Assembly (NCBI GenBank): GCA_049969975.1
Contig: JBMFNW010000001.1
Location: forward strand, 232-64,231
DNA: 64,000 nt
Source: Candidatus Nanoarchaeia archaeon
GTDB lineage: Archaea; Nanobdellota; Nanobdellia; UBA10117
Direction: 5' to 3'
Shown here one piece after another: positions 17,367 to 63,601 of the stretch (its first letter is position 1; each line of letters starts with the position of its first letter). The notes beneath the pieces are model-generated. The model saw nothing but the letters and a program-made list of their open reading frames with translations, did no database searches and had not been told where the DNA came from. The position numbers were made by a program, and so were the translations under genes.

Positions 17367-17437
17367 GCGGGGATGGCAGAGCAGCTATGCGCTCGCCTGC
17401 AGAGCGAGATAGGAGGGTGCGACTCCCTCTCCCCGCT
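17367..17437 (+). tRNA. tRNA-Cys (GCA)
   Basis: Acceptor GCGGGGA/TCCCCGC. Anticodon stem CTCGC/GCGAG with loop CTGCAGA. T-stem GAGGG/CCCTC with an atypical T-loop TGCGACT (G at position 55). Short D-arm, no encoded CCA. Lies 26 nt upstream of cysS. Confidence 0.6.
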
Positions 17438-33906: not shown

Positions 33907-33960
33907 TTGCATTTTTTATTTTTTTGTGCTTTTTTGTTTGATAAGTAAAATGAATTTTAG

Positions 33961-34035
33961 TGCCCCCGACGGGATTTGAACCCATGCCGACGGCTCGAAA
34001 GGCCGCCATCCTTGACCGGGCTAGACGACGGGGGC
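33961..34035 (-). tRNA. tRNA-Glu (UUC)
   Basis: Reverse complement gives acceptor GCCCCCG/CGGGGGC. Anticodon stem GCGGC/GCCGU with loop CUUUCGA. T-arm with TTCAAAT loop. No encoded CCA. Confidence 0.75.
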
Positions 34036-34036
34036 A

Positions 34037-34141
34037 TGGGCCGGGGCGGATTCGAACCGCCGACCTGCCGCTGGCTTAGACAGAAGCTTGCGCTTCTGCG
34101 TCATATAAGACGGCCGCTCCACCAGGCTAAGCTACCGGCCC
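34037..34141 (-). tRNA. tRNA-Ile (UAU) with 31-nt canonical intron (intron 34073..34103)
   Basis: Acceptor GGGCCGG/CCGGCCC. T-arm GGCGG-TTCGAAT-CCGCC. Variable loop AGGTC. Anticodon stem GCCGU/GCGGC. Exon loop CUUAUA|..|A. Between positions 37 and 38 lies a 31-nt insert that folds into an hBHBh' motif, with a central 4-bp helix CUUA/UAAG and two 3-nt bulges with splice sites after the 2nd bulge nucleotide, plus an internal 6-7 bp hairpin (AGAAGC...GCUUCU). Confidence 0.6.
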
Positions 34142-41871: not shown

Positions 41872-43351
41872 GTTCCCGTTGATCCTGCGGGAGAGTACCG
41901 CTAGTTGGGTCCGATTAAGACATGCAAGTCTACTGGGGAGATTACATCAAACCGGTGGCGTAAGGCTGCGTAACACGTTGAGAACCTACCCTTGGGAAGG
42001 GAATAACCTCGCGAAAGTGAGGCTAATTCCCTATAGAAGACGGACCTTGGAAGAGCCCGTCTTTGAAATCCTTCGGGGCCCAAGGATGGCTCAGCGGCAG
42101 ATTAGGCAGTTGGTGGTGTAATGGACCACCAAACCTGTGATCTGTAGGGGCCATGAGAGTGGGAGCCTCCAGAGGCACACTGAGAAAAGGGTGCCAGCCC
42201 TACGGGGTGCAGCAGTCGCGAAACCTTCGCAATGCGCGAAAGCGTGACGAGGGGACCCAACGTGCCAGCTCTTTGAGTTGGCTTTTGCCATGTTTTAAAA
42301 GCATGGCGAATAAGTGAGTGGGTAAGACCGGTGCCAGCCGCCGCGGTAATCCCGGCGCCACAAGTGGTACTCACGTTTATTGGGTCTAAAGCATCCGTAG
42401 CCGTCTTGCAAAGTTTCCTGTGAAATCCGGCAGCTTGACTGTCGGGCGGGCAGGAAATACTTGCAAGATAGAGAGCGGGAGAAGTGGAGGGAATGCCCCG
42501 GGGAGCGGTAAAATGTTTTAATCCGGGGTGGACCACCGATGGCGAAGGCACTCCACTAGAACGCGTCTGACGGTGAGGGATGAAAGCTAGGGGAGCAAAA
42601 GGGATTAGATACCCCTGTAGTCCTAGCCGTAAACGCTGCCCGTTTGATGTGTGGTATTGTATAAATACCATGCGTCGTAGCGAAGGCGTTGAACGGGCCA
42701 CCTGGGGAGTACGGCCGCAAGACTGAAACTTAAAGGAATAGGCGGGGGAACACACAAGGGGTGTATGCTGCGGCTCAATTGGATTCAACGCCCGGAACCT
42801 TACCAGCAGCGACTGCAGAATGAAGGTCCTCCTGAATGGGGCACTCGACACGCAGAGAGGTGGTGCATGGCCGTCGTCAGCTCGTGCCGTGAGGTGTTCT
42901 GTTAAGTCAGAGAACGAGCGAGACCTGCGTCCTTAATTGCTATCCTTTTCTTGCGAAAGCTTGAAAAGGAGCACAATAAGGAGACTGCCGGCGTAAGCCG
43001 GAGGAAGGTGCAGGCAACGATAGGTCTGTATGCCCCGAATCTGCTGGGCTGCACGCGGCATCCATTGGTTGAGAGAACGAGCTGCAACCCCGAAAGGGGA
43101 AGCCAATCTCTTAATCTCAACCATGTTCGGATCGAGGACTGCAACTCGTCCTCGTGAAGGCGAAATCCCTAGTACACGTGTTTTAGCATAGCACGTGGAA
43201 TACGTCCCTGTTCCTTGCACTCACTGCCTGTCAACTCAACCGAGTCGGGTCAAAGTGAGGTTTTCGCTGAGGAAATCGAACTTTGGCTCGGCAAGGCGGG
43301 GTAAGTCAACACAAGGTATCTGTAGGGGAACCTGCAGATGGATCACCTCCT
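41872..43351 (+). rRNA. rrs: 16S rRNA
   Basis: 5' TTCCCGTTGATCCTGCGGGAG and 3' GGATCACCTCCT. Internal GTGCCAGCCGCCGCGGTAA. Flanked by an 18-bp perfect inverted repeat (41793..41810 vs 43351..43368), which is the processing stem. Confidence 0.9.
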
Positions 43352-43420
43352 ATACTCTTATCTTCTCCAATTGGACCGATTAAGCATAACTCTTTTAAAC
43401 GCCTGTCAAAAGAAAAAATC

Positions 43421-43504
43421 GGGCCGGTAGATCAATAGTAGATCGCCGCCCTTGCAATTTCACAAGACAGGCGGAGGCTTCGGGTGCGAATCCCGACCGG
43501 TCCA
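43421..43504 (+). tRNA. tRNA-Ala (UGC) with 12-nt intron (43457..43468) in the 16S-23S spacer
   Basis: Acceptor GGGCCGG/CCGGTCC including the G3:U70 Ala identity pair. Anticodon stem CCGCC/GGCGG. Loop CTTGCA[ATTTCACAAGAC]A, where the intron 3' part CAAG pairs with exon CTTG to give a relaxed BHB. T-loop TGCGAAT (G at position 55). Confidence 0.7.
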
Positions 43505-43575
43505 TTTACTGTATTGAGGTTCCCAATCGAATGATGGGGACTGAGCAGTTTTCATGTTTGAAAACTGTGCATAGT

Positions 43576-46483
43576 TGGCCTGTTGAAGAGAATAGATGCC
43601 TTTTGGTGGATAGCTTGGCTTGAGAAGCCGAGGAAGGCCGTGGCAAGCTGCGATAAGCACGAGGTAGGCGCATGCAGCCTTTGAACTCGTGATTGCCGAA
43701 TGGGTCTTCCTTCTTTCTTCGGAAAGAGATCCGTAAGGATCGGGAACCCGCTGAATTGAAACATCTTAGTAAGCGGAGGAAAAGAAACCAAATGGGATGC
43801 CGTTAGTAGGGGCGACCGAAAGCGGCAAAGGGCGTACCGAATTCCTTTTGGTAACAAAAGGAAGATGTGGGCTGTCCAACAACCAGTTTAGACTTGCGAA
43901 GTGCTTTGGAAAAAGCCGCCGAAGAGGGTGATAGCCCCGTAGCAACATCTAAGCTGGTTGGGGCAGCAAAGAGTAGCACAAGTTGGGATTCTTGTGCGAA
44001 GATGGGTGTCAACAACATCCAACCCTAAATACTTCTCAAGACCGATAGCGCACTAGTACCGTGAGGGAATGCTGAAAAGCTCCCATGGCAGGGAGTGAAA
44101 AGAGCTTGAAACCAAAAGGCGATAGTACGACGCGGCCCCAAGGGGTTGCGTCATCCGTTTTGAAAAACGGGCCGGCGAGTTTAGCTTTGTGGCGAGCTTA
44201 ACCTGACAAAGGGGAAGCGTAGCGAAAGCAAGAGGCCCGCAGCGTTGAGCGAGGGGCGGCGTGTGCTCGCGCTATAGTCACAAGGCTAAGACCTGAAGCC
44301 TGACGAGCTAAGCCAGGCCATGCTGAAGCTCGGGTAAAACCGAGTGGAGGGCAGAAGAGGTTCTGCACATACGCGTTCTTCTGAGCCTGGTTTAGGAGTG
44401 ATATGCTCATCGAGTCAGGCGCTAGCTGGTTCCCACAGAAACAAGCCAAAGTTTGGCCTCGACAGAGCCGTCGCAAGGGGTAGAGTACAGATTGCGGAAG
44501 CAGGGGCTTCGGCTTCGTTCCGCTGTCTAACTCCGAATCCTTGCGAGGCGTAGAAGTCGGGAGTAAGTAGGCGCGGTTAAGCTGCGCAGGCGAAAGGGAA
44601 ACAACCCCGCGAATGGTTAAGGCCCTAAAGAGCTAGCTGAGTGCAAAGAAGGATTCTTCTGTCGTAGACAGCTGGGACGTAGGCTTAGAAGCAGCCATCG
44701 TCTAAGCAACGCGTAACAGCGGACCAGTTGAGACAGAAGGGTCTGAAAATGGACGGGGCTAAGCTAGCCGCCGATACCATTCTCTCCCAAAAGGGAAGAG
44801 GTATGTGGGCGCAGCCATAGAGCAGAAGCATGCTCGTGAGAGTGTGTGGATCTATGGCTGATGTGAATGCCGGTGTAAGTAGAAGCTAAGTATGGTGAAA
44901 AACCATACCAGCGAAAGGGCCAGGTTTTCTCGGCACTGCTCGTCAACCGAGAGTTAGCCGGTCCTAAGTTTGGTGCCTAAGCGTGCCAAACGAAAGGGAA
45001 GTCCGTTAATATTCGGACGCTATCAAGCCACATGCGGCGACGCAAGGTTGCTTGCCGACGCTTTGGGATAGGCTAAGGCGTACCGTCGTGCGCTTTAAGC
45101 ACCGAAGTCTGGGGAATTCTGTAATGGATAGAACCAGATGAAAGTGCGAATAGCACTCGCAAGAGTGTTTAGCTGATTCCTGGAGCCGGTGAAAAGGCAA
45201 GCAATCGTGGCTTGATAACCGTACTCAGAACCGACACAGGTGACCCTGGCCGAGTAAGCCGAGCTGTGACGGGTTGACCCCTCCCAAGGGAACTCGGCAA
45301 ATTAGCCGCGTATCTTCGGTAGAAGCGGTCTCTGCGGCATTGCTGTGAAATATCGGTGGTGCTGCAGGGTGCAATGACAAGGGGGATCCGACTGTTTAAC
45401 AAAAACGTAGCTAAGCGCAAAGTCTAAACGGCTTTGTACGCTTGGTGATTCCTGCCCAGTACGGTTGCCTGAAACTCCGGTCCAACGGAGCTAAGGGCCC
45501 GTAAACGGCGGAGGTAACTCTGACCTTCTTAAGGTAGCGAAATGCCTTGTCACTTAATTGGTGACGTGCATGAAGGGCTAACGAGATCCCCACTGTCCCT
45601 GGGAGGAACCCGACGAATTTTCTCTTCTGGCGAACAGGCCAGAGACCTCCAGCGGGAAATGAAGACCCCGTAGACCTTTACTGCAGCCTGTTGCTGCGGT
45701 TTGTTTGGCGCTGCATAGAGTAGCTGGGACCCGTTTGCAGTTGCTTCTTTCGGGAAGCAATGAGGGGAAAGTGTAACACCAGCCTTCTCTAAGCAGATCG
45801 CTTACCCTTATGGGGACACCTTCAGGTGGGCAGTTTTGCTGGGGCGGCAACCTTCCGAAAAGATATCGGAAGGATCTAATGATCGGCTCACCAGGCTTGG
45901 AAACCCTGGGTAGAGGAAAAGGCTAAAAGCCGGTCTGACTCGGTCCTAAACAGCGAGGGTCCGAGACGCGAAAGCGAGGCCTAGCGAACATAGGTGTCAC
46001 TTTTGTTGAGCGCCCTATCTGATAGAAAAGGTACCTCGGGGATAACTGAGTCGTGCCGAGCAAGAGTACACATCGACCTCGGCGCTTGCTTCTTCGCTGT
46101 CGGCTTTGCCTAGCTTGGCTGTGTACAAGCAGCCAAGAGTGCAGGTGTTCACTGATTAAAAGGCATCATGAGCTGGGTTCACAACGTCGTGAGACAGTTG
46201 GTGTACAATCTGCTGGAGGTGCATAGGGTCTGAGGAGAAGGCAGTTTAAGTACGAAAGGAACAAACTGTCCGCGCCTCTGGTGTACGGGCTATCTGATAA
46301 GGTAGGCCCGGCAGCTACGCGCGTCGGGATAAGCTCTGAAGGCATCTAAGAGCGAAGCCCGCCCCAAAAAGAGACCCTAGGAGCTACCCTAGATGAGGGT
46401 GTTGATAGGACTGGGGTGTACGAGCCAAGGTAACGAGGCTTTCAGCCCGCAGTTACTAATCGCTCCGCTTCTCTAAACAGGCC
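43576..46483 (+). rRNA. rrl: 23S rRNA
   Basis: 5' region GGTGGATAGCTTGGC...GAAGGCCGTGGCAAGCTGCGATAAGC. The 3' region ends ...AGTTACTAATCGCTCCGCTTCTCTAAACAGGCC, which pairs with the 5' GGCCTGTTGAAGAGAA (helix 1). Boundaries about +/-15 nt. Confidence 0.85.
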
Positions 46484-46639
46484 AATTATGCATAGTTTTC
46501 ACTTTTCTCATTATTTTCTCATAATTTTTTTCTTAATTTTATTCTCAACAATTAAAATTCCCAAAACAAGTTTGTCTAAAGCAAATTTCTTTAAAGCACA
46601 AAAGCAAATTTTTTAAATTATGTTTTTAATTCTAAATTT

Positions 46640-46900
46640 GGAGACAAAGCCAGCAAACTTTCGCAGCAAAAGCTGTGAGGAAAGTCTGCCCATCCAAAAG
46701 CTCAAAAGGTCTTGGAAAGGACCAGGCAAACACAGAAATACACAAACTGCGTCGCAGGATGATATATTGACTTTGGCGCAGATTTGGTGAAAATGTTTGC
46801 CAGAGCGGATGCAAGTCTAAAAGACGCTAAGTAGAATGTTTGCACAACCTTCCTTCAATTGAAGGGGTTGCAACAGAAGGCAGCTTATGGCTTTGTCTCC
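46640..46900 (+). ncRNA. rnpB: RNase P RNA (reduced, about 261 nt)
   Basis: Perfect 12-bp terminal helix (GGAGACAAAGCC ... GGCTTTGTCTCC). P4 halves GAGGAAAGTCTGCCC and ACAGAAGGCAGCTTATGGC match universal RNase P CR-I and CR-V. Lies 157 nt downstream of the 23S. Confidence 0.75.
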
Positions 46901-46935: not shown

Positions 46936-47091
46936 ATGGCTCAAGAAAAAATAAGGCTGCCAACATCCGAAGCAGGCCTAGTTAGATATTTTGAAGAAGC
47001 AAAATCGAAATTCCAACTTAGCCCGGTAACTGTTGTATCTTTTGTGATTGGAATGATAATTATACTATTAATTTTTAATAAAATATTTTAA
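46936..47091 (+). CDS. secG: Preprotein translocase subunit Sec61beta (SecG, archaeal)
   Basis: 51 aa MAQEKIRLPTSEAGLVRYFEE...PVTVVSFVIGMIIILLIF with the conserved P.S.AGL.RY motif and a C-terminal TM. Manual call below the ORF cutoff. Confidence 0.65.
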   Translation: MAQEKIRLPTSEAGLVRYFEEAKSKFQLSPVTVVSFVIGMIIILLIFNKIF

Positions 47092-47121: not shown

Positions 47122-47541
47122 ATGGTACTGCCCTCTTACGAAGAAATGTTGGATGCACTTTATGCAGCATTACCTAAAACAGGAGAAAAAGAAGTAATTA
47201 GACTTGAAATACCTGAAATTAAAAGTAGCATTTCTGGCAACAGAACAATTGTTTATAATTTAGAATCTATAGCTAAAGCAGTACGGCGAGATGTTTCACA
47301 CATTTTTAAATTTTTATTAAGGGAGCTTGCAACAACAGGGGCTTACAAGTCAGGGGAAACAGTGTTTGTTGGGAAATTTAAAAGTGATTTTCTAGCTGAA
47401 AAAATTAAAAAATATGTAAATGAATTTGTACTTTGCAAGCAGTGCGGCAAGCCAGACACGCATTTGGAAAAAGTAGCAGCAGCAACTCTTTTAATATGTG
47501 AAGCCTGTGGCGCACAAGAATCCGTTCGAACGCTTAAATAG
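47122..47541 (+). CDS. eif2b: Translation initiation factor 2 beta subunit (aIF-2beta)
   Basis: 139 aa with the conserved central region and a C-terminal C4 zinc ribbon (CKQCGKPDT...CEACG). Confidence 0.75.
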   Translation: MVLPSYEEMLDALYAALPKTGEKEVIRLEIPEIKSSISGNRTIVYNLESIAKAVRRDVSHIFKFLLRELATTGAYKSGETVFVGKFKSDFLAEKIKKYVNEFVLCKQCGKPDTHLEKVAAATLLICEACGAQESVRTLK

Positions 47542-50815: not shown

Positions 50816-51355
50816 ATGGGTTTGTTTGATAGCTTGAAACGTATTCTTAAAAAGCAGCCAGCAGAGCCCCAACGACAAAAACCGGAGGTCAAACGTGCAA
50901 GGGTAGTTGTTAAACAGATCAAAAAAAGAAAAAAGCAGAAACTACCAGAGCACCAAATCTTGCGTGAGTGGCGGCAAGAACTTAAGCGCCTACAAGAACA
51001 CCCACTCACGCAAGCAAAAATAATCAATGAGCAGCTACTTGCCACTATTATGGATCTTTTAAACGAGATAAATGCAAAACTTGATGAGTTGAGTAGAAGG
51101 CTCGAAAAACTTGAATTGCAAAAAGTGAAAGAATCCAAAGCGACACAAGCGACACCAACAATCAAATTAAACAGTAGCGAGCAAAGCGTATTGGATTTTG
51201 TAAAAAAAGCAAAGGAGGCGCGAGCACAAGAAGTTGCAGAATCTTTAGGTATTTCGAGATCGAATGCAGCATTAAAATTAAATAAGTTGTTTTCTATGGG
51301 CTTCTTAGATAAAAGACAAGATGGAAAAGATGTTTTTTATTTTCTGAAAGGGTAA
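50816..51355 (+). CDS. Coiled-coil protein with C-terminal winged-HTH (MarR/ArsR/TrmB-like) domain
   Basis: The C-terminus SEQSVLDFVKKAKEARAQEVAESLGISRSNAALKLNKLFSMGFLDKRQDGKDVFYFL is a wHTH. The N-terminal 110 aa is K/E/Q-rich coiled coil. Confidence 0.6.
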   Translation: MGLFDSLKRILKKQPAEPQRQKPEVKRARVVVKQIKKRKKQKLPEHQILREWRQELKRLQEHPLTQAKIINEQLLATIMDLLNEINAKLDELSRRLEKLELQKVKESKATQATPTIKLNSSEQSVLDFVKKAKEARAQEVAESLGISRSNAALKLNKLFSMGFLDKRQDGKDVFYFLKG

Positions 51356-61310: not shown

Positions 61311-62159
61311 ATGGATTTTTTGAGAAAAAAAGCACTCATTTTTTTGCTACTAATGTTTATTTTATTTATTTTTATAATTGTTTTAATTCCTGAAAAAGAA
61401 AAAAGTTGTGATGAGCTTATTTCTGAAATTCCTAAATTAATTGAACAAGCGAAAGCAGCAAGGGCATTTTATGTTAGTAATGTTATTGATGGCGATACAA
61501 TTGTTTTGGATAATGGTAAAAAAGTTAGGTTGCTTGGAATTAATGCGCCAGAAAAAGACATGCCTTTTTATGATTCTGCCAAAAATTTCACCAAAAATTT
61601 AACATTAGGTAAAAAAGTCTATTTGGTAAGAGATTCTTCTGACAAAGATCTCTATGGACGATCTTTAAGATATGTTTTTACAGAAGATGTTTTTGTAAAT
61701 GCAGAATTACTAAAGCAAGGTTTGGCAACACTTTTCATTGTTGAGCCAAATACAAAATATGCTAAGTTATTTTCTTGTTTGGAAGAGTATGCTAGGCAAA
61801 ACAAACTTTCTATTTGGTCTAAAACAAAACATTACTCTTTAAATATCACAGTAAATTTTGATGCCCCTGGCAGCGATTCTGAAAATTTGAATGGCGAATT
61901 TGTTCAAATTTGGAATTTTGGAACAGAACCAATAAATCTTACAGGTTGGATTATAAAAGATGCAGCCAAACATATTTACAAGTTTGAAAATTTTGTTTTG
62001 CTTCCAAATAAAAAAGTAACCATTTATACTGGTTTTGGAAATGATTCTGATGAAGAATTATATTGGAATTCAGAAGCGCCTATTTGGAACAATGATGGTG
62101 ACACTGCATATTTATTTGATAATGAAGGTAATTTAGTTGCTTGGTTAACTTTTCCCTAA
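61311..62159 (+). CDS. Membrane-anchored staphylococcal-nuclease (SNase/thermonuclease)-like protein with C-terminal lamin-tail domain
   Basis: N-terminal TM. SNase motifs (VIDGDTIVL; RLLGINAPE; YGRSLRYVF). C-terminal LTD (NLNGEFVQIWNFGTEPINLTGWIIKD...TIYTG). Confidence 0.7.
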   Translation: MDFLRKKALIFLLLMFILFIFIIVLIPEKEKSCDELISEIPKLIEQAKAARAFYVSNVIDGDTIVLDNGKKVRLLGINAPEKDMPFYDSAKNFTKNLTLGKKVYLVRDSSDKDLYGRSLRYVFTEDVFVNAELLKQGLATLFIVEPNTKYAKLFSCLEEYARQNKLSIWSKTKHYSLNITVNFDAPGSDSENLNGEFVQIWNFGTEPINLTGWIIKDAAKHIYKFENFVLLPNKKVTIYTGFGNDSDEELYWNSEAPIWNNDGDTAYLFDNEGNLVAWLTFP

Positions 62160-62471
62160 CCTTTTTTCTTTGATGTATGGATACCTATTGATGTGACCAC
62201 AAGCCTTGCATATGTATTCTACTGCTTTGAGTTTTGGATTCAATTTAATTTGTACATTTTTACCTGGTTGGAGCCAAGTATAGCATTTGTGACAAAACTT
62301 TCTTCTTTGTTCTCTCGAGAATCTTAAATTAAATTTCATCGCGAGTTTTCTTGCTAAAAAAAGGTATCTTGTTGCACGATCGATATTCCCAGTTTTAGCT
62401 GCAGCTTCAGCCTCTTTAAAAAGTATGTCAATACGTTCAGAAGCAATTTTTTTCCAATCAGATTTTAGCAT
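62145..62471 (-). CDS. rpr2: RNase P protein subunit Rpr2/Rpp21
   Basis: 108 aa with N-terminal helices and a zinc ribbon (CHKCYTWL...CKACGH). Confidence 0.7.
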   Translation of the reverse strand: MLKSDWKKIASERIDILFKEAEAAAKTGNIDRATRYLFLARKLAMKFNLRFSREQRRKFCHKCYTWLQPGKNVQIKLNPKLKAVEYICKACGHINRYPYIKEKRLGKS

Positions 62472-62476
62472 AACAA

Positions 62477-62593
62477 TGCTAGCAGCTTTCCACCCTTCCC
62501 GCCTGTTCGGCAGTACAAAGTGGAACGTTGCTGGGATTCACTTCCGTGTTCGGAATGGGTACGGGTCTTGCCCCAGCACTTTGACCGCTAGCA
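62477..62593 (-). rRNA. rrf: 5S rRNA
   Basis: Reverse complement contains CCCATTCCGAACACGGAAGTGAA (loop C/helix III signature). The 5' UGCUAGC pairs with the 3' GCUAGCA (helix I). TATA-like ATATTTAAAAAT lies about 25 nt upstream on the minus strand. Ends +/-3 nt. Confidence 0.8.
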
Positions 62594-62767
62594 TTTTCTT
62601 TTTTATGTTTGGATTTTTAAATATTGCGCTTCGTTTACAAACGTTTACAAATTTATTCGCAGAAGCTCCAATTTTTAGGGTGGGTCCAAAACCCCAAAAG
62701 CTTTGGCAAGGAGAACATATTGGAATGCCATAATAAAATTTTAAAATTTAACGAATGCCATAATAAG

Positions 62768-63601
62768 ATGGCTAATGCGTGTGCAGAGCTTTGGTTATTC
62801 GGCGATGAGATAGAACCATCATCTTTGATTGAGGCTGTATATGGGACTGATAAACGCTTAAGAAGTTATAGAATTGACAAAGATACTGGAAAGCTTGAAT
62901 TACTTGAAGATAAAAGTTACAATTGCAGCAACGATAATTTAACACCTTCTGTATTATTAACTAAAGCGTTTATTGATTATATAAAAGCTAAAGTCAATGA
63001 TGAGCGTCTTGCGATATTTGATTTTTATGGTAAGGGGCAGTATGGTGATTTAGTGGAGGAGACTAAGTTTTACGAACAGCGTCTGAACAATGCAATATTT
63101 AAAGTATTTGAGACAGCACCATATTCAAACAGACCGCTTGAGCGAATAGTGATTGATACGATAATGAATTTCAAGGACGAGCGTGGGAAAGAGTGTAAGG
63201 ATATCACTCGGAATATGATGCTTAGAGCTCCGCCAGTGTATCTTTGTCTTAATAGTTATATTGAAGATGGCAAGGTAATACGCAGAGATAGTAAAGATAC
63301 TTTAGGTTCGATAGAATTAATAGAATACTATAAAAATAGTAAAATACTTGAGGAAAAACGTAAATTATATAGAATTGGAAAAATAGATGAAAATGAGTTT
63401 ATGAACTATTTTGTTAATATGTTGTTTTCCTGGAATAAATGTATGATGTATAATTTGAATCATCTTGAATGTGTGTTGAATGAATTATTGAAGCGTAAAG
63501 ATGAATCGATTAATAGAGATGTATCTATTGATGTATCTTATGTGTATGTTAGCATGGAAAAAGGTGATGAATATAAGTTTCCACCACCAGGTTATTTGTG
63601 A
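62768..63601 (+). CDS. Hypothetical protein (ORFan)
   Basis: 278 aa from MANACAELW. The track ORF is extended upstream through the 5S promoter region. No recognisable motif. Confidence 0.4.
   Translation: MANACAELWLFGDEIEPSSLIEAVYGTDKRLRSYRIDKDTGKLELLEDKSYNCSNDNLTPSVLLTKAFIDYIKAKVNDERLAIFDFYGKGQYGDLVEETKFYEQRLNNAIFKVFETAPYSNRPLERIVIDTIMNFKDERGKECKDITRNMMLRAPPVYLCLNSYIEDGKVIRRDSKDTLGSIELIEYYKNSKILEEKRKLYRIGKIDENEFMNYFVNMLFSWNKCMMYNLNHLECVLNELLKRKDESINRDVSIDVSYVYVSMEKGDEYKFPPPGYL

Follow-up and report, generated by a model that had tools for sequence, protein, structure and literature searches.

Our analysis of a 64,000-nucleotide (nt) stretch of archaeal DNA (positions 232 to 64,231 of contig JBMFNW010000001.1, assembly GCA_049969975.1, Candidatus Nanoarchaeia archaeon; hereafter the window) revealed that a stand-alone 5S ribosomal RNA (rRNA) gene and rpr2, the gene for the ribonuclease P (RNase P) protein subunit Rpp21, lie on the same strand only 5 nt apart, with no promoter signal between them by motif search. 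The host is a low-GC (~35%) DPANN archaeon. The two genes might form one compact transcription unit that is transcribed from the 5S promoter, and we consider read-through of the 5S gene into rpr2 to be the best explanation for the expression of rpr2, with a confidence slightly better than even. Read-through is favoured since the junction contains neither a TATA box nor a T-tract while rpr2 is evidently under purifying selection. The features concerned are listed in the table below.

The 5S gene was identified on the minus strand with the Rfam model RF00001 (62592-62477; 66.6 bits against a gathering score of 38, model positions 1-120 covered) and with R1, a covariance model specific to the clade that was built from 32 related 5S genes and that gave a single match within the window (62593-62477, 130.8 bits). 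U62593 can pair with A62477 at the two ends of the 5S rRNA, and therefore the longer coordinates, which had been given in the original prediction together with a TATA-like element belonging to the gene, are acceptable. Among 32 relatives compensatory changes were found in 18 of 31 base pairs, 97.4% of cells were paired compared with 33-53% in slid controls, and the observed covariation values were reached by none of 500 shuffles, the three-way-junction structure being maintained. Judged by this comparison, the region is a genuine 5S gene under selection. Its TATA box TTTAAAAA (62621-62614) starts 28 nt before the 5' end of the 5S gene and is separated from U62593 by a gap of 20 nt. In related 5S loci the TATA box starts within -32 to -26 of the 5' end in 37 of 44 distinct loci, with a mode at -28. 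Since the TATA box in the window occupies this modal position, transcription probably starts at the mature 5S 5' end or within one base of it; in crenarchaea the 5S primary transcript likewise begins at the mature 5' end. The 19-nt promoter block AAGCGCAATATTTAAAAAT is identical in the window and in a sister lineage represented by loci L032 and L033, despite diverged flanks and synonymous sites. Within the 5S gene itself, the differences between the window and L032 include compensatory ones. The claim that the 5S gene is unlinked to the 16S-23S operon also stood, as it is the only 5S gene in the window and the operon contains none.

Some further observations concern the 5S genes and their upstream regions. 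Immediately upstream of the transcription factor B recognition element (BRE) and TATA box of the 5S gene, at 62632-62650 on the minus strand, lies a tandem direct repeat, TTGTAAACG, of two copies with a period of 10. This repeat is not present in L032, and a comparable cluster of GTTTAAAC-type repeats was found upstream of an open reading frame (ORF) at 50816; both types of repeats may be transcription-factor binding sites. In L118 and L120, two of five assemblies of the same organism, the stretch from the 5S TATA box to the beginning of the 5S gene has A7 in place of A6, which gives a distance of 21 nt instead of 20. Several related 5S genes contain additional sequence, namely 44-46 nt in L001 (2795-2957), L012 (355-514) and L017 (1592-1751), with a total length of 160-163 nt, and ~16 nt in L106 (1680-1813) and L107 (232-365), with a total length of 134 nt. 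In all of these the extra sequence sits in the hairpin loop of helix III (loop C), and it looks like expansion segments or small insertions.

The product of rpr2 matched PF04032 with an E-value of 2.1e-14 and 54 bits (cut-off 29.3) over profile positions 1-90 of 90. Residues 2-104 aligned to residues 5-108 of the archaeal RNase P protein component 4 structure 6K0A_G (E=2e-23), and the protein also aligned with the solved structures 1X0T and 2K3R. Homology runs over the full length, from the N-terminal helical region to the C-terminal zinc ribbon (CxxC...CxxC), whose cysteines C60, C63, C88 and C91 are invariant across 18 sequences. A partner for Rpr2 in the holoenzyme is present in the window in form of the RNase P RNA (RF00373), the partner check covering the RNA component. 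An in-frame stop precedes the ATG at 62471 with no other start codon between them, the N-termini of 17 homologues line up with this ATG, and the structural alignment starts at residue 2. On these three lines of evidence the start codon is secure, as is its earlier placement 5 nt past the 5S gene behind the spacer TTGTT. A later start was rejected, given that the next in-frame methionine is residue 45, within the conserved domain, and that alignments to homologues and to the structures begin at residues 1-3. Comparison with L032 gave a proportion of synonymous differences (pS) of 0.80, which is saturated, and a proportion of nonsynonymous differences (pN) of 0.12, and the resulting pN/pS of ~0.15 indicates that rpr2 is under purifying selection. 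Two public proteins annotated as Rpr2, P0007 (154 amino acids, aa) and P0012 (135 aa), carry N-terminal extensions, and the extension of P0007 resembles a translated upstream 5S gene (...NPFPLRSRKLS...). This is probably a gene-calling artefact from the tight 5S-rpr2 junction.

The junction sequence is identical in five independent assemblies, and the sister lineage (80% amino-acid identity), which was seen in two samples, has an 8-nt junction CTTTTACA that is likewise promoter-less. In the window, TATA-like 8-mers were located upstream of 66 ORFs; they start at -30 to -26 from the ATG in 18 cases, with a mode at -29, and given this peak most window genes appear to be transcribed as leaderless mRNAs. 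At the corresponding positions of rpr2 (-30 to -23) there is no TATA box. The sequence found there, CGGGAAGG, is G-rich and lies inside helices IV/V of the 5S rRNA, and the earlier claim that no space is left for a separate rpr2 promoter is in keeping with this. In window genes that lack an upstream TATA box, or that are located inside operons, a strong Shine-Dalgarno sequence is frequent, namely GGAGGT, which is complementary to the 3' end of the 16S rRNA (...GGATCACCTCCT); no Shine-Dalgarno sequence was found in the 12 nt before the rpr2 ATG (GCTAGCATTGTT). Since the promoter-less junction has persisted through synonymous saturation and purifying selection, rpr2 appears to be expressed in this configuration.

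Archaeal termination relies on U-tracts. The longest T-run within 20 nt past the 5S gene is 2 in the window, and a T-run of at least 4 is found within the same distance in 31 of 43 distinct relatives. A hairpin-type terminator was not found at the junction either, in a scan (which included sigma-70 promoters) that is of bacterial type and has little weight for an archaeon. A permissive Rfam scan of 62100-62800 returned only the 5S rRNA and one chance-level snoRNA match and no tRNA-like or other processing element, and ARAGORN detected no tRNA at the junction. The gene upstream of the 5S gene (62768-63601) is divergent and no other co-directional gene lies upstream, and therefore the 5S promoter is the only co-directional promoter upstream of rpr2. 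On the other side, a convergent gene for a protein with an SNase-Lamin-tail-domain (SNase-LTD) overlaps the 3' end of rpr2 and would mark the end of the putative 5S-rpr2 transcription unit of ~450 nt; a T-tract terminator is evident for neither of the two genes at their overlap.

Two minor points relate to the same region. When the 5S rRNA was folded together with the first 72 nt of rpr2, a 6-bp hairpin (UAGCAU-UGUU-AUGCUA) appeared that would hide the AUG, along with a non-canonical 5S fold. We rejected the hairpin as a probable coincidence, since L032 does not share it and the stronger helix I of the 5S rRNA competes with it. The divergent ORF, which had no Pfam match, more likely starts at the ATG at 62768 than at the TTG at 62624 and encodes 277 aa in other assemblies. 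Its TATA box (region 62723-62766) is located between two 14-nt direct repeats GAATGCCATAATAA that are 30 nt apart.

Coordinates of the features described in the text. Positions refer to the window, except for the three related loci L112, L113 and L115.
Feature	Coordinates	Strand	Basis and remarks
5S rRNA gene	62593-62477	minus	Rfam RF00001 and clade model R1; sole copy in the window
5S promoter	62613-62631	minus	BRE-like AAGCGCAA and TATA box TTTAAAAA
5S-rpr2 spacer TTGTT	62476-62472	minus	5 nt; without TATA box, without Shine-Dalgarno sequence; longest T-run 2
rpr2 (Rpp21, RNase P protein component 4)	62471-62145	minus	108 aa; PF04032; PDB homology
SNase-LTD gene	61311-62159	plus	convergent; overlaps the 3' end of rpr2 by 15 nt (62145-62159)
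16S - tRNA - 23S operon without 5S gene	41872-46479	plus	Rfam; R1 finds no other 5S gene in the window
T7 tract between 23S and RNase P RNA	46525-46531	plus	sequence
RNase P RNA TATA box TTTTTAAA	46610-46617	plus	sequence
RNase P RNA gene	46642-46898	plus	Rfam RF00373 (RNaseP_arch), 107.1 bits
Sec61beta	46936-47091		Pfam; after RNase P RNA
aIF2beta	47122-47541		Pfam; after Sec61beta
L113	4486-5423		64-nt gap from 23S to RNase P RNA; 106.5 bits
L112	4338-5420		RNase P RNA, E=2e-10
L115	2878-5420		RNase P RNA, E=4e-17; ORF inserted

The original prediction had proposed conservation of the arrangement in related genomes as a check. We compared 111 loci with relatives of Rpr2, 31 from GTDB species genomes and 80 from metagenomes. 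R1 gave an upstream 5S match for 49 of these, on the same strand as rpr2 for 48. When loci were grouped by Rpr2 identity after removal of duplicates, a 5S gene was located within 2.4 kb upstream in 30 of 33 informative loci with at least 50% identity (29 on the same strand, 9 adjacent, i.e. at most 80 nt apart), in 15 of 28 with 43-50% identity (all 15 on the same strand, 10 adjacent), and in a single one of 10 with less than 43% identity (same strand and adjacent). At the highest level of identity the linkage is thus widely present, and its absence from all relatives, which the original prediction had named as a refutation, does not hold. A further 35 loci, among them those of Thermoplasmatales, Methanosarcinales, Lokiarchaeum and Aenigmatarchaeota, gave no 5S match with R1 in the vicinity of rpr2 even at E <= 5. 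These negative loci limit the linkage to a Woesearchaeales/Pacearchaeales-like clade, within which, by the same comparison, it is old. Other genes are kept near rpr2 as well: SNase-LTD is a convergent neighbour in 26 loci and a threonyl-tRNA synthetase (ThrRS) gene in 21, down to 44-47% Rpr2 identity.

The distance between the two genes varies among the relatives. Spacers of 18-75 nt were found in ~17 other distinct loci and of 0.2-2.4 kb in ~25 loci, where genes of mixed kinds lie between 5S and rpr2, among them toxin-antitoxin pairs and a membrane protein of 86 aa that is found repeatedly. This conserved membrane protein (MAKGFLAVVLVL...GLGDDL..ITGNAVK), with a length of 86-93 aa, is encoded between 5S and rpr2 in L012 (553-813), L013, L014, L016, L017, L018, L056, L057 and L072, and in most of its loci it adjoins the 5S gene downstream. 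Toxin-antitoxin-like pairs occupy the same insertion place in L036, L056 and L069. The 184-nt spacer of L009 (2802-2985) has at its end, directly ahead of a TATA box, the sequence of the 5S 3' end once more (CAGCTGCTGACA). Either part of the 5S gene may have been duplicated here, or model R1 may have split a single 5S gene that contains a large insertion.

Most adjacent relatives with sufficient space between the genes have a promoter signal for rpr2. In 13 of 15 adjacent relatives with a spacer of at least 28 nt, a TATA box belonging to rpr2 starts 28-30 nt before the ATG, for example TTTTTATA in L001, TTTATAAG in L003, TTTTATAA in L047 and TTTATATA in L106; 11 of these were found with the search pattern and those of L003 and L039 by eye. 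Across 95 distinct loci an rpr2 TATA box starts at -31 to -27 of the ATG in 40, with a sharp mode at -29. The normal state in relatives would accordingly be a leaderless rpr2 mRNA that is transcribed from its own promoter directly behind the 5S gene. A canonical TATA box was found in none of the loci with a spacer of at most 24 nt, namely the window, L032/33, the Pacearchaeota L030 (18 nt) and L031 (23 nt), and L097 (24 nt), and only the window and L032/33 lack an rpr2 promoter outright.

From these observations we infer the following course of read-through, processing and translation. RNA polymerase would start at or beside the mature 5S 5' end (G62592, preceded by U62593) and transcribe the 117-nt 5S gene, and some polymerases would continue through rpr2, as TTGTT has no U-tract terminator. 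In Methanococcus maripaludis the median efficiency of terminators is 30% without a U4 tract and 43% with one U4 tract (PMC8716108). Weak read-through from a very strong rRNA promoter could suffice for an RNase P subunit of low abundance. The arrangement might have arisen from an ancestor in which rpr2 was located just behind the 5S gene with its own TATA box ~29 nt before the ATG and a leaderless mRNA; a deletion of ~30 nt would then have removed the rpr2 promoter in the lineage of the window and in its sister lineage. Less certain is the next step, in which cleavage at the 5S 3' end would free an rpr2 mRNA with a leader of at most 5 nt. This mRNA could be translated by the leaderless pathway that appears to be used for most genes here, and leaderless translation after cleavage would explain why rpr2 has no Shine-Dalgarno sequence. 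Alternatively, translation might begin by Shine-Dalgarno-independent internal initiation in the A/U-rich start region.

Several points weigh against such read-through, or against extending it beyond these two lineages. On a read-through transcript the AUG would lie 5 nt past the stable 5S helix I without a Shine-Dalgarno sequence or an upstream ORF, and therefore its translation would need an extra step, be it processing or internal initiation. To our knowledge there is no nuclease that makes a precise cut at the 3' end of archaeal 5S rRNA and leaves the RNA behind it intact. The earlier suggestion that translation of Rpr2 is driven by read-through agrees with the missing promoter and T-tract, and its translational part poses a problem. 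A T5 run inside rpr2 (codons 16-18) could stop some of the read-through transcripts. Archaeal promoters are sometimes weak and non-canonical, so that the absence of a motif is not decisive. L031, with its 23-nt spacer, has three T4-T5 tracts between 5S and rpr2, and therefore a short spacer is not always coupled with an absent terminator. Most relatives have either an rpr2 TATA box or intervening genes; co-transcription is therefore not a general rule, and the conserved feature, as judged from these loci, is adjacency. Finally, two neighbours that cannot share a transcript with rpr2, SNase-LTD and ThrRS, are kept about as widely as the 5S gene. Since 5S, rpr2 and ThrRS form a syntenic block, conservation of the 5S-rpr2 linkage alone is not proof of selection for coupling, and after this control we downgraded it as an argument for functional coupling.

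The weakness of some archaeal promoters leads to an alternative in which a TATA-less or degenerate promoter in the 3' half of the 5S gene would start a separate leaderless rpr2 transcript, the two genes having overlapping signals and no shared transcript. Rpp21 requires only low expression and weak promoters escape motif scans, and in L049 and L102 (spacers of 28-29 nt) the 5S gene is followed without a gap by the TATA box of rpr2, so that promoter signals can abut the 5S 3' end. Nevertheless we regard such a promoter as unlikely: only 2-3 of the 8 positions at -30 to -23 are A/T in the window (CGGGAAGG) and in L032 (GAAGAGCG), the stretch is constrained by the rRNA structure of helices IV/V, and there is no A/T-rich 8-mer within the last 45 nt of the 5S gene.

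The conservation of the convergent neighbours points to another possibility, that the arrangement reflects inherited synteny and genome compaction without functional coupling, with 5S, rpr2 and ThrRS as a block that rearranges slowly in small DPANN genomes, the 5-nt spacer being a neutral deletion and traces of rpr2 mRNA arising from pervasive transcription. Such an account deals with the reason for the arrangement and can in part coexist with read-through. It would fit with SNase-LTD and ThrRS being conserved about as widely as the 5S linkage and with the many insertions of unrelated genes, such as toxin-antitoxin pairs and small membrane proteins, that left 5S and rpr2 no further apart. As a full account it appears rather improbable to us, because the promoter-less state outlasted synonymous saturation under purifying selection, so that rpr2 must be adequately expressed, and because the sole recognizable promoter upstream of rpr2 is that of the 5S gene. 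Very little credence is left for an assembly error or a recent deletion with rpr2 as an incipient pseudogene. Nothing specific speaks for either apart from the genome being metagenome-assembled from an uncultured organism, and we rejected both on the junction, which recurs in the five assemblies and in comparable form in the two samples of the sister lineage, and on the state of the gene, with an intact ORF, invariant zinc-ribbon cysteines and a low pN/pS. Read-through from the 5S promoter hence remains our preferred explanation for the window and L032/33.

The RNase P RNA gene is likewise located next to an rRNA gene. It starts 163 nt past the end of the 23S gene (46479), where a classical operon would have the 5S gene, and it is followed by Sec61beta and aIF2beta. 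The order 23S - RNase P RNA - Sec61beta - aIF2beta was found in three of five relatives sampled through aIF2beta (L112, L113 and L115), and no rRNA was found at that position in the other two. In both the window and L113 the RNase P RNA has a TATA box ~30 nt upstream, the end of which is 22 nt away from the 5' end of the RNA, and T5-T7 tracts lie between the 23S gene and this TATA box. Given these signals physical linkage is supported and co-transcription with the 23S gene is not: the RNase P RNA is linked to the rRNA operon in a conserved manner, and the sequence points to a separate promoter. Of the original statement that both RNase P components are tied to rRNA transcription units, the adjacency could be retained, and for the RNase P RNA the separate TATA box and the T7 tract lend no support to a shared unit. 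The 23S genes of L112 (1101-3896) and L115 (1824-2366) contain ORFs for LAGLIDADG homing endonucleases, which suggests rRNA introns; the 23S gene of the window (43582-46479) matches the model without such insertions.

A broader reading would cover several lineages, namely the window (5 nt), L032/33 (8 nt) and possibly L030/L031 (18-23 nt) and L097 (24 nt), and would include the 23S-RNase P RNA order as a second fixed linkage across Woesearchaeales-/Pacearchaeales-like DPANN. Here the rpr2 mRNA would be a 3' extension of the 5S rRNA within a bifunctional rRNA-mRNA precursor, with the 5S rRNA acting as 'punctuation', a leaderless mRNA resulting from cleavage, and RNase P being stoichiometrically coupled to ribosome synthesis. 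We offer this as a tentative possibility only and hold it to be rather doubtful.

A close parallel is the bacterial rpmH-rnpA pair, which is widely conserved and in which the RNase P protein gene is located behind the L34 gene and depends on its promoter (PMC10941002). In both cases the RNase P protein gene directly follows a gene for a ribosome component. The likeness is one of logic only, as Rpr2 belongs to PF04032 (archaeal/eukaryal) and is unrelated to bacterial RnpA. Moreover, the upstream gene here is an rRNA gene, whereas in bacteria it encodes the protein L34 and translational coupling is possible, and most members of the present clade keep a separate rpr2 promoter. Described archaeal units with an unlinked 5S gene are monocistronic or, in Thermococcales, a dicistron of 5S and tRNAAsp (bioRxiv 10.64898/2026.03.23.713588). 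The Thermococcales dicistron shares with the window a stand-alone 5S gene with its own promoter and a downstream passenger gene. There, however, the passenger is a tRNA that is freed by standard tRNA-processing enzymes, and here it is a protein-coding gene without a recognizable processing signal.

In mitochondria, tRNAs that are cut by RNase P and RNase Z act as 'punctuation' and free leaderless mRNAs that have no promoter of their own. The hypothetical cleavage beside a structured RNA would similarly give a leaderless mRNA, but the structured RNA is the 5S rRNA and there is no tRNA-like element at the junction. Expression of downstream genes at a lower level through leaky termination behind a strong promoter is described for systems including E. 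coli rrn-encoded sRNAs and archaeal operons (PMC8144298, PMC10450193). Together with the terminator data mentioned above (PMC8716108), these resemble the window in that a downstream gene would be expressed by read-through, which is predicted here; they differ in consisting of sRNAs or ordinary mRNA operons, in place of an mRNA behind a stand-alone 5S gene.

Archaeal genes for RNase P subunits are known to be linked to other genes, Rpp29 being encoded in a ribosomal-protein operon and Pop5 and Rpp30 in the exosome superoperon. An Rpp30 operon is described for Pyrococcus abyssi (PMC2872656). These operons resemble the present case in linking a subunit gene to the translation apparatus and differ from it in being protein-protein operons. 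An earlier report of an Rpp21-5S or RNase P RNA-23S linkage was not found in the literature searched, which is not proof of absence, and neither was a report of an mRNA appended to a stand-alone 5S rRNA. The element that seems new here is an rRNA as the upstream member of a promoter-sharing read-through unit, the general kind of which is already known.

If read-through holds true on the RNA level, the window would provide a clear prokaryotic case of a promoter-less protein gene expressed as the tail of a 5S transcript, and would show how extreme compaction of DPANN genomes reuses an rRNA promoter. It would also offer a natural system for studying 5S 3'-end formation in archaea and translation of mRNAs that have neither a Shine-Dalgarno sequence nor their own 5' end, and RNase P supply would be linked to ribosome output, as through rpmH-rnpA in bacteria. 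The comparative result is independent of RNA data: both linkages, 5S with rpr2 and 23S with RNase P RNA, have been kept among lineages that diverged at the level of orders. They can serve as anchors for finding divergent 5S and RNase P RNA genes in metagenome-assembled DPANN genomes, and the 5S-rpr2 linkage exposes gene-calling errors such as 'Rpr2' proteins that are extended through the 5S gene.

The genome studied, which we take to belong to the same broad class as Nanoarchaeum equitans, retains the RNase P RNA and the Rpp21 subunit. N. equitans itself is without RNase P (PMC10100707). For several tRNA genes of the window, such as those at 17367, 34141 and 48847 (tRNA-Cys, the tRNA at 34141, and tRNA-Gln), the TATA box starts 28-30 nt before the mature 5' end, and by this spacing the tRNAs would carry little or no 5' leader, as in the RNase P-free Nanoarchaeum. 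Only 1 nt separates two of the tRNAs (34037-34141 and 33960-34035), which must be cut from each other. Two tRNAs that were found with Rfam and missed by ARAGORN, one of 84 nt in the 16S-23S spacer (43421-43504) and one of 105 nt at 34037-34141, probably contain introns.

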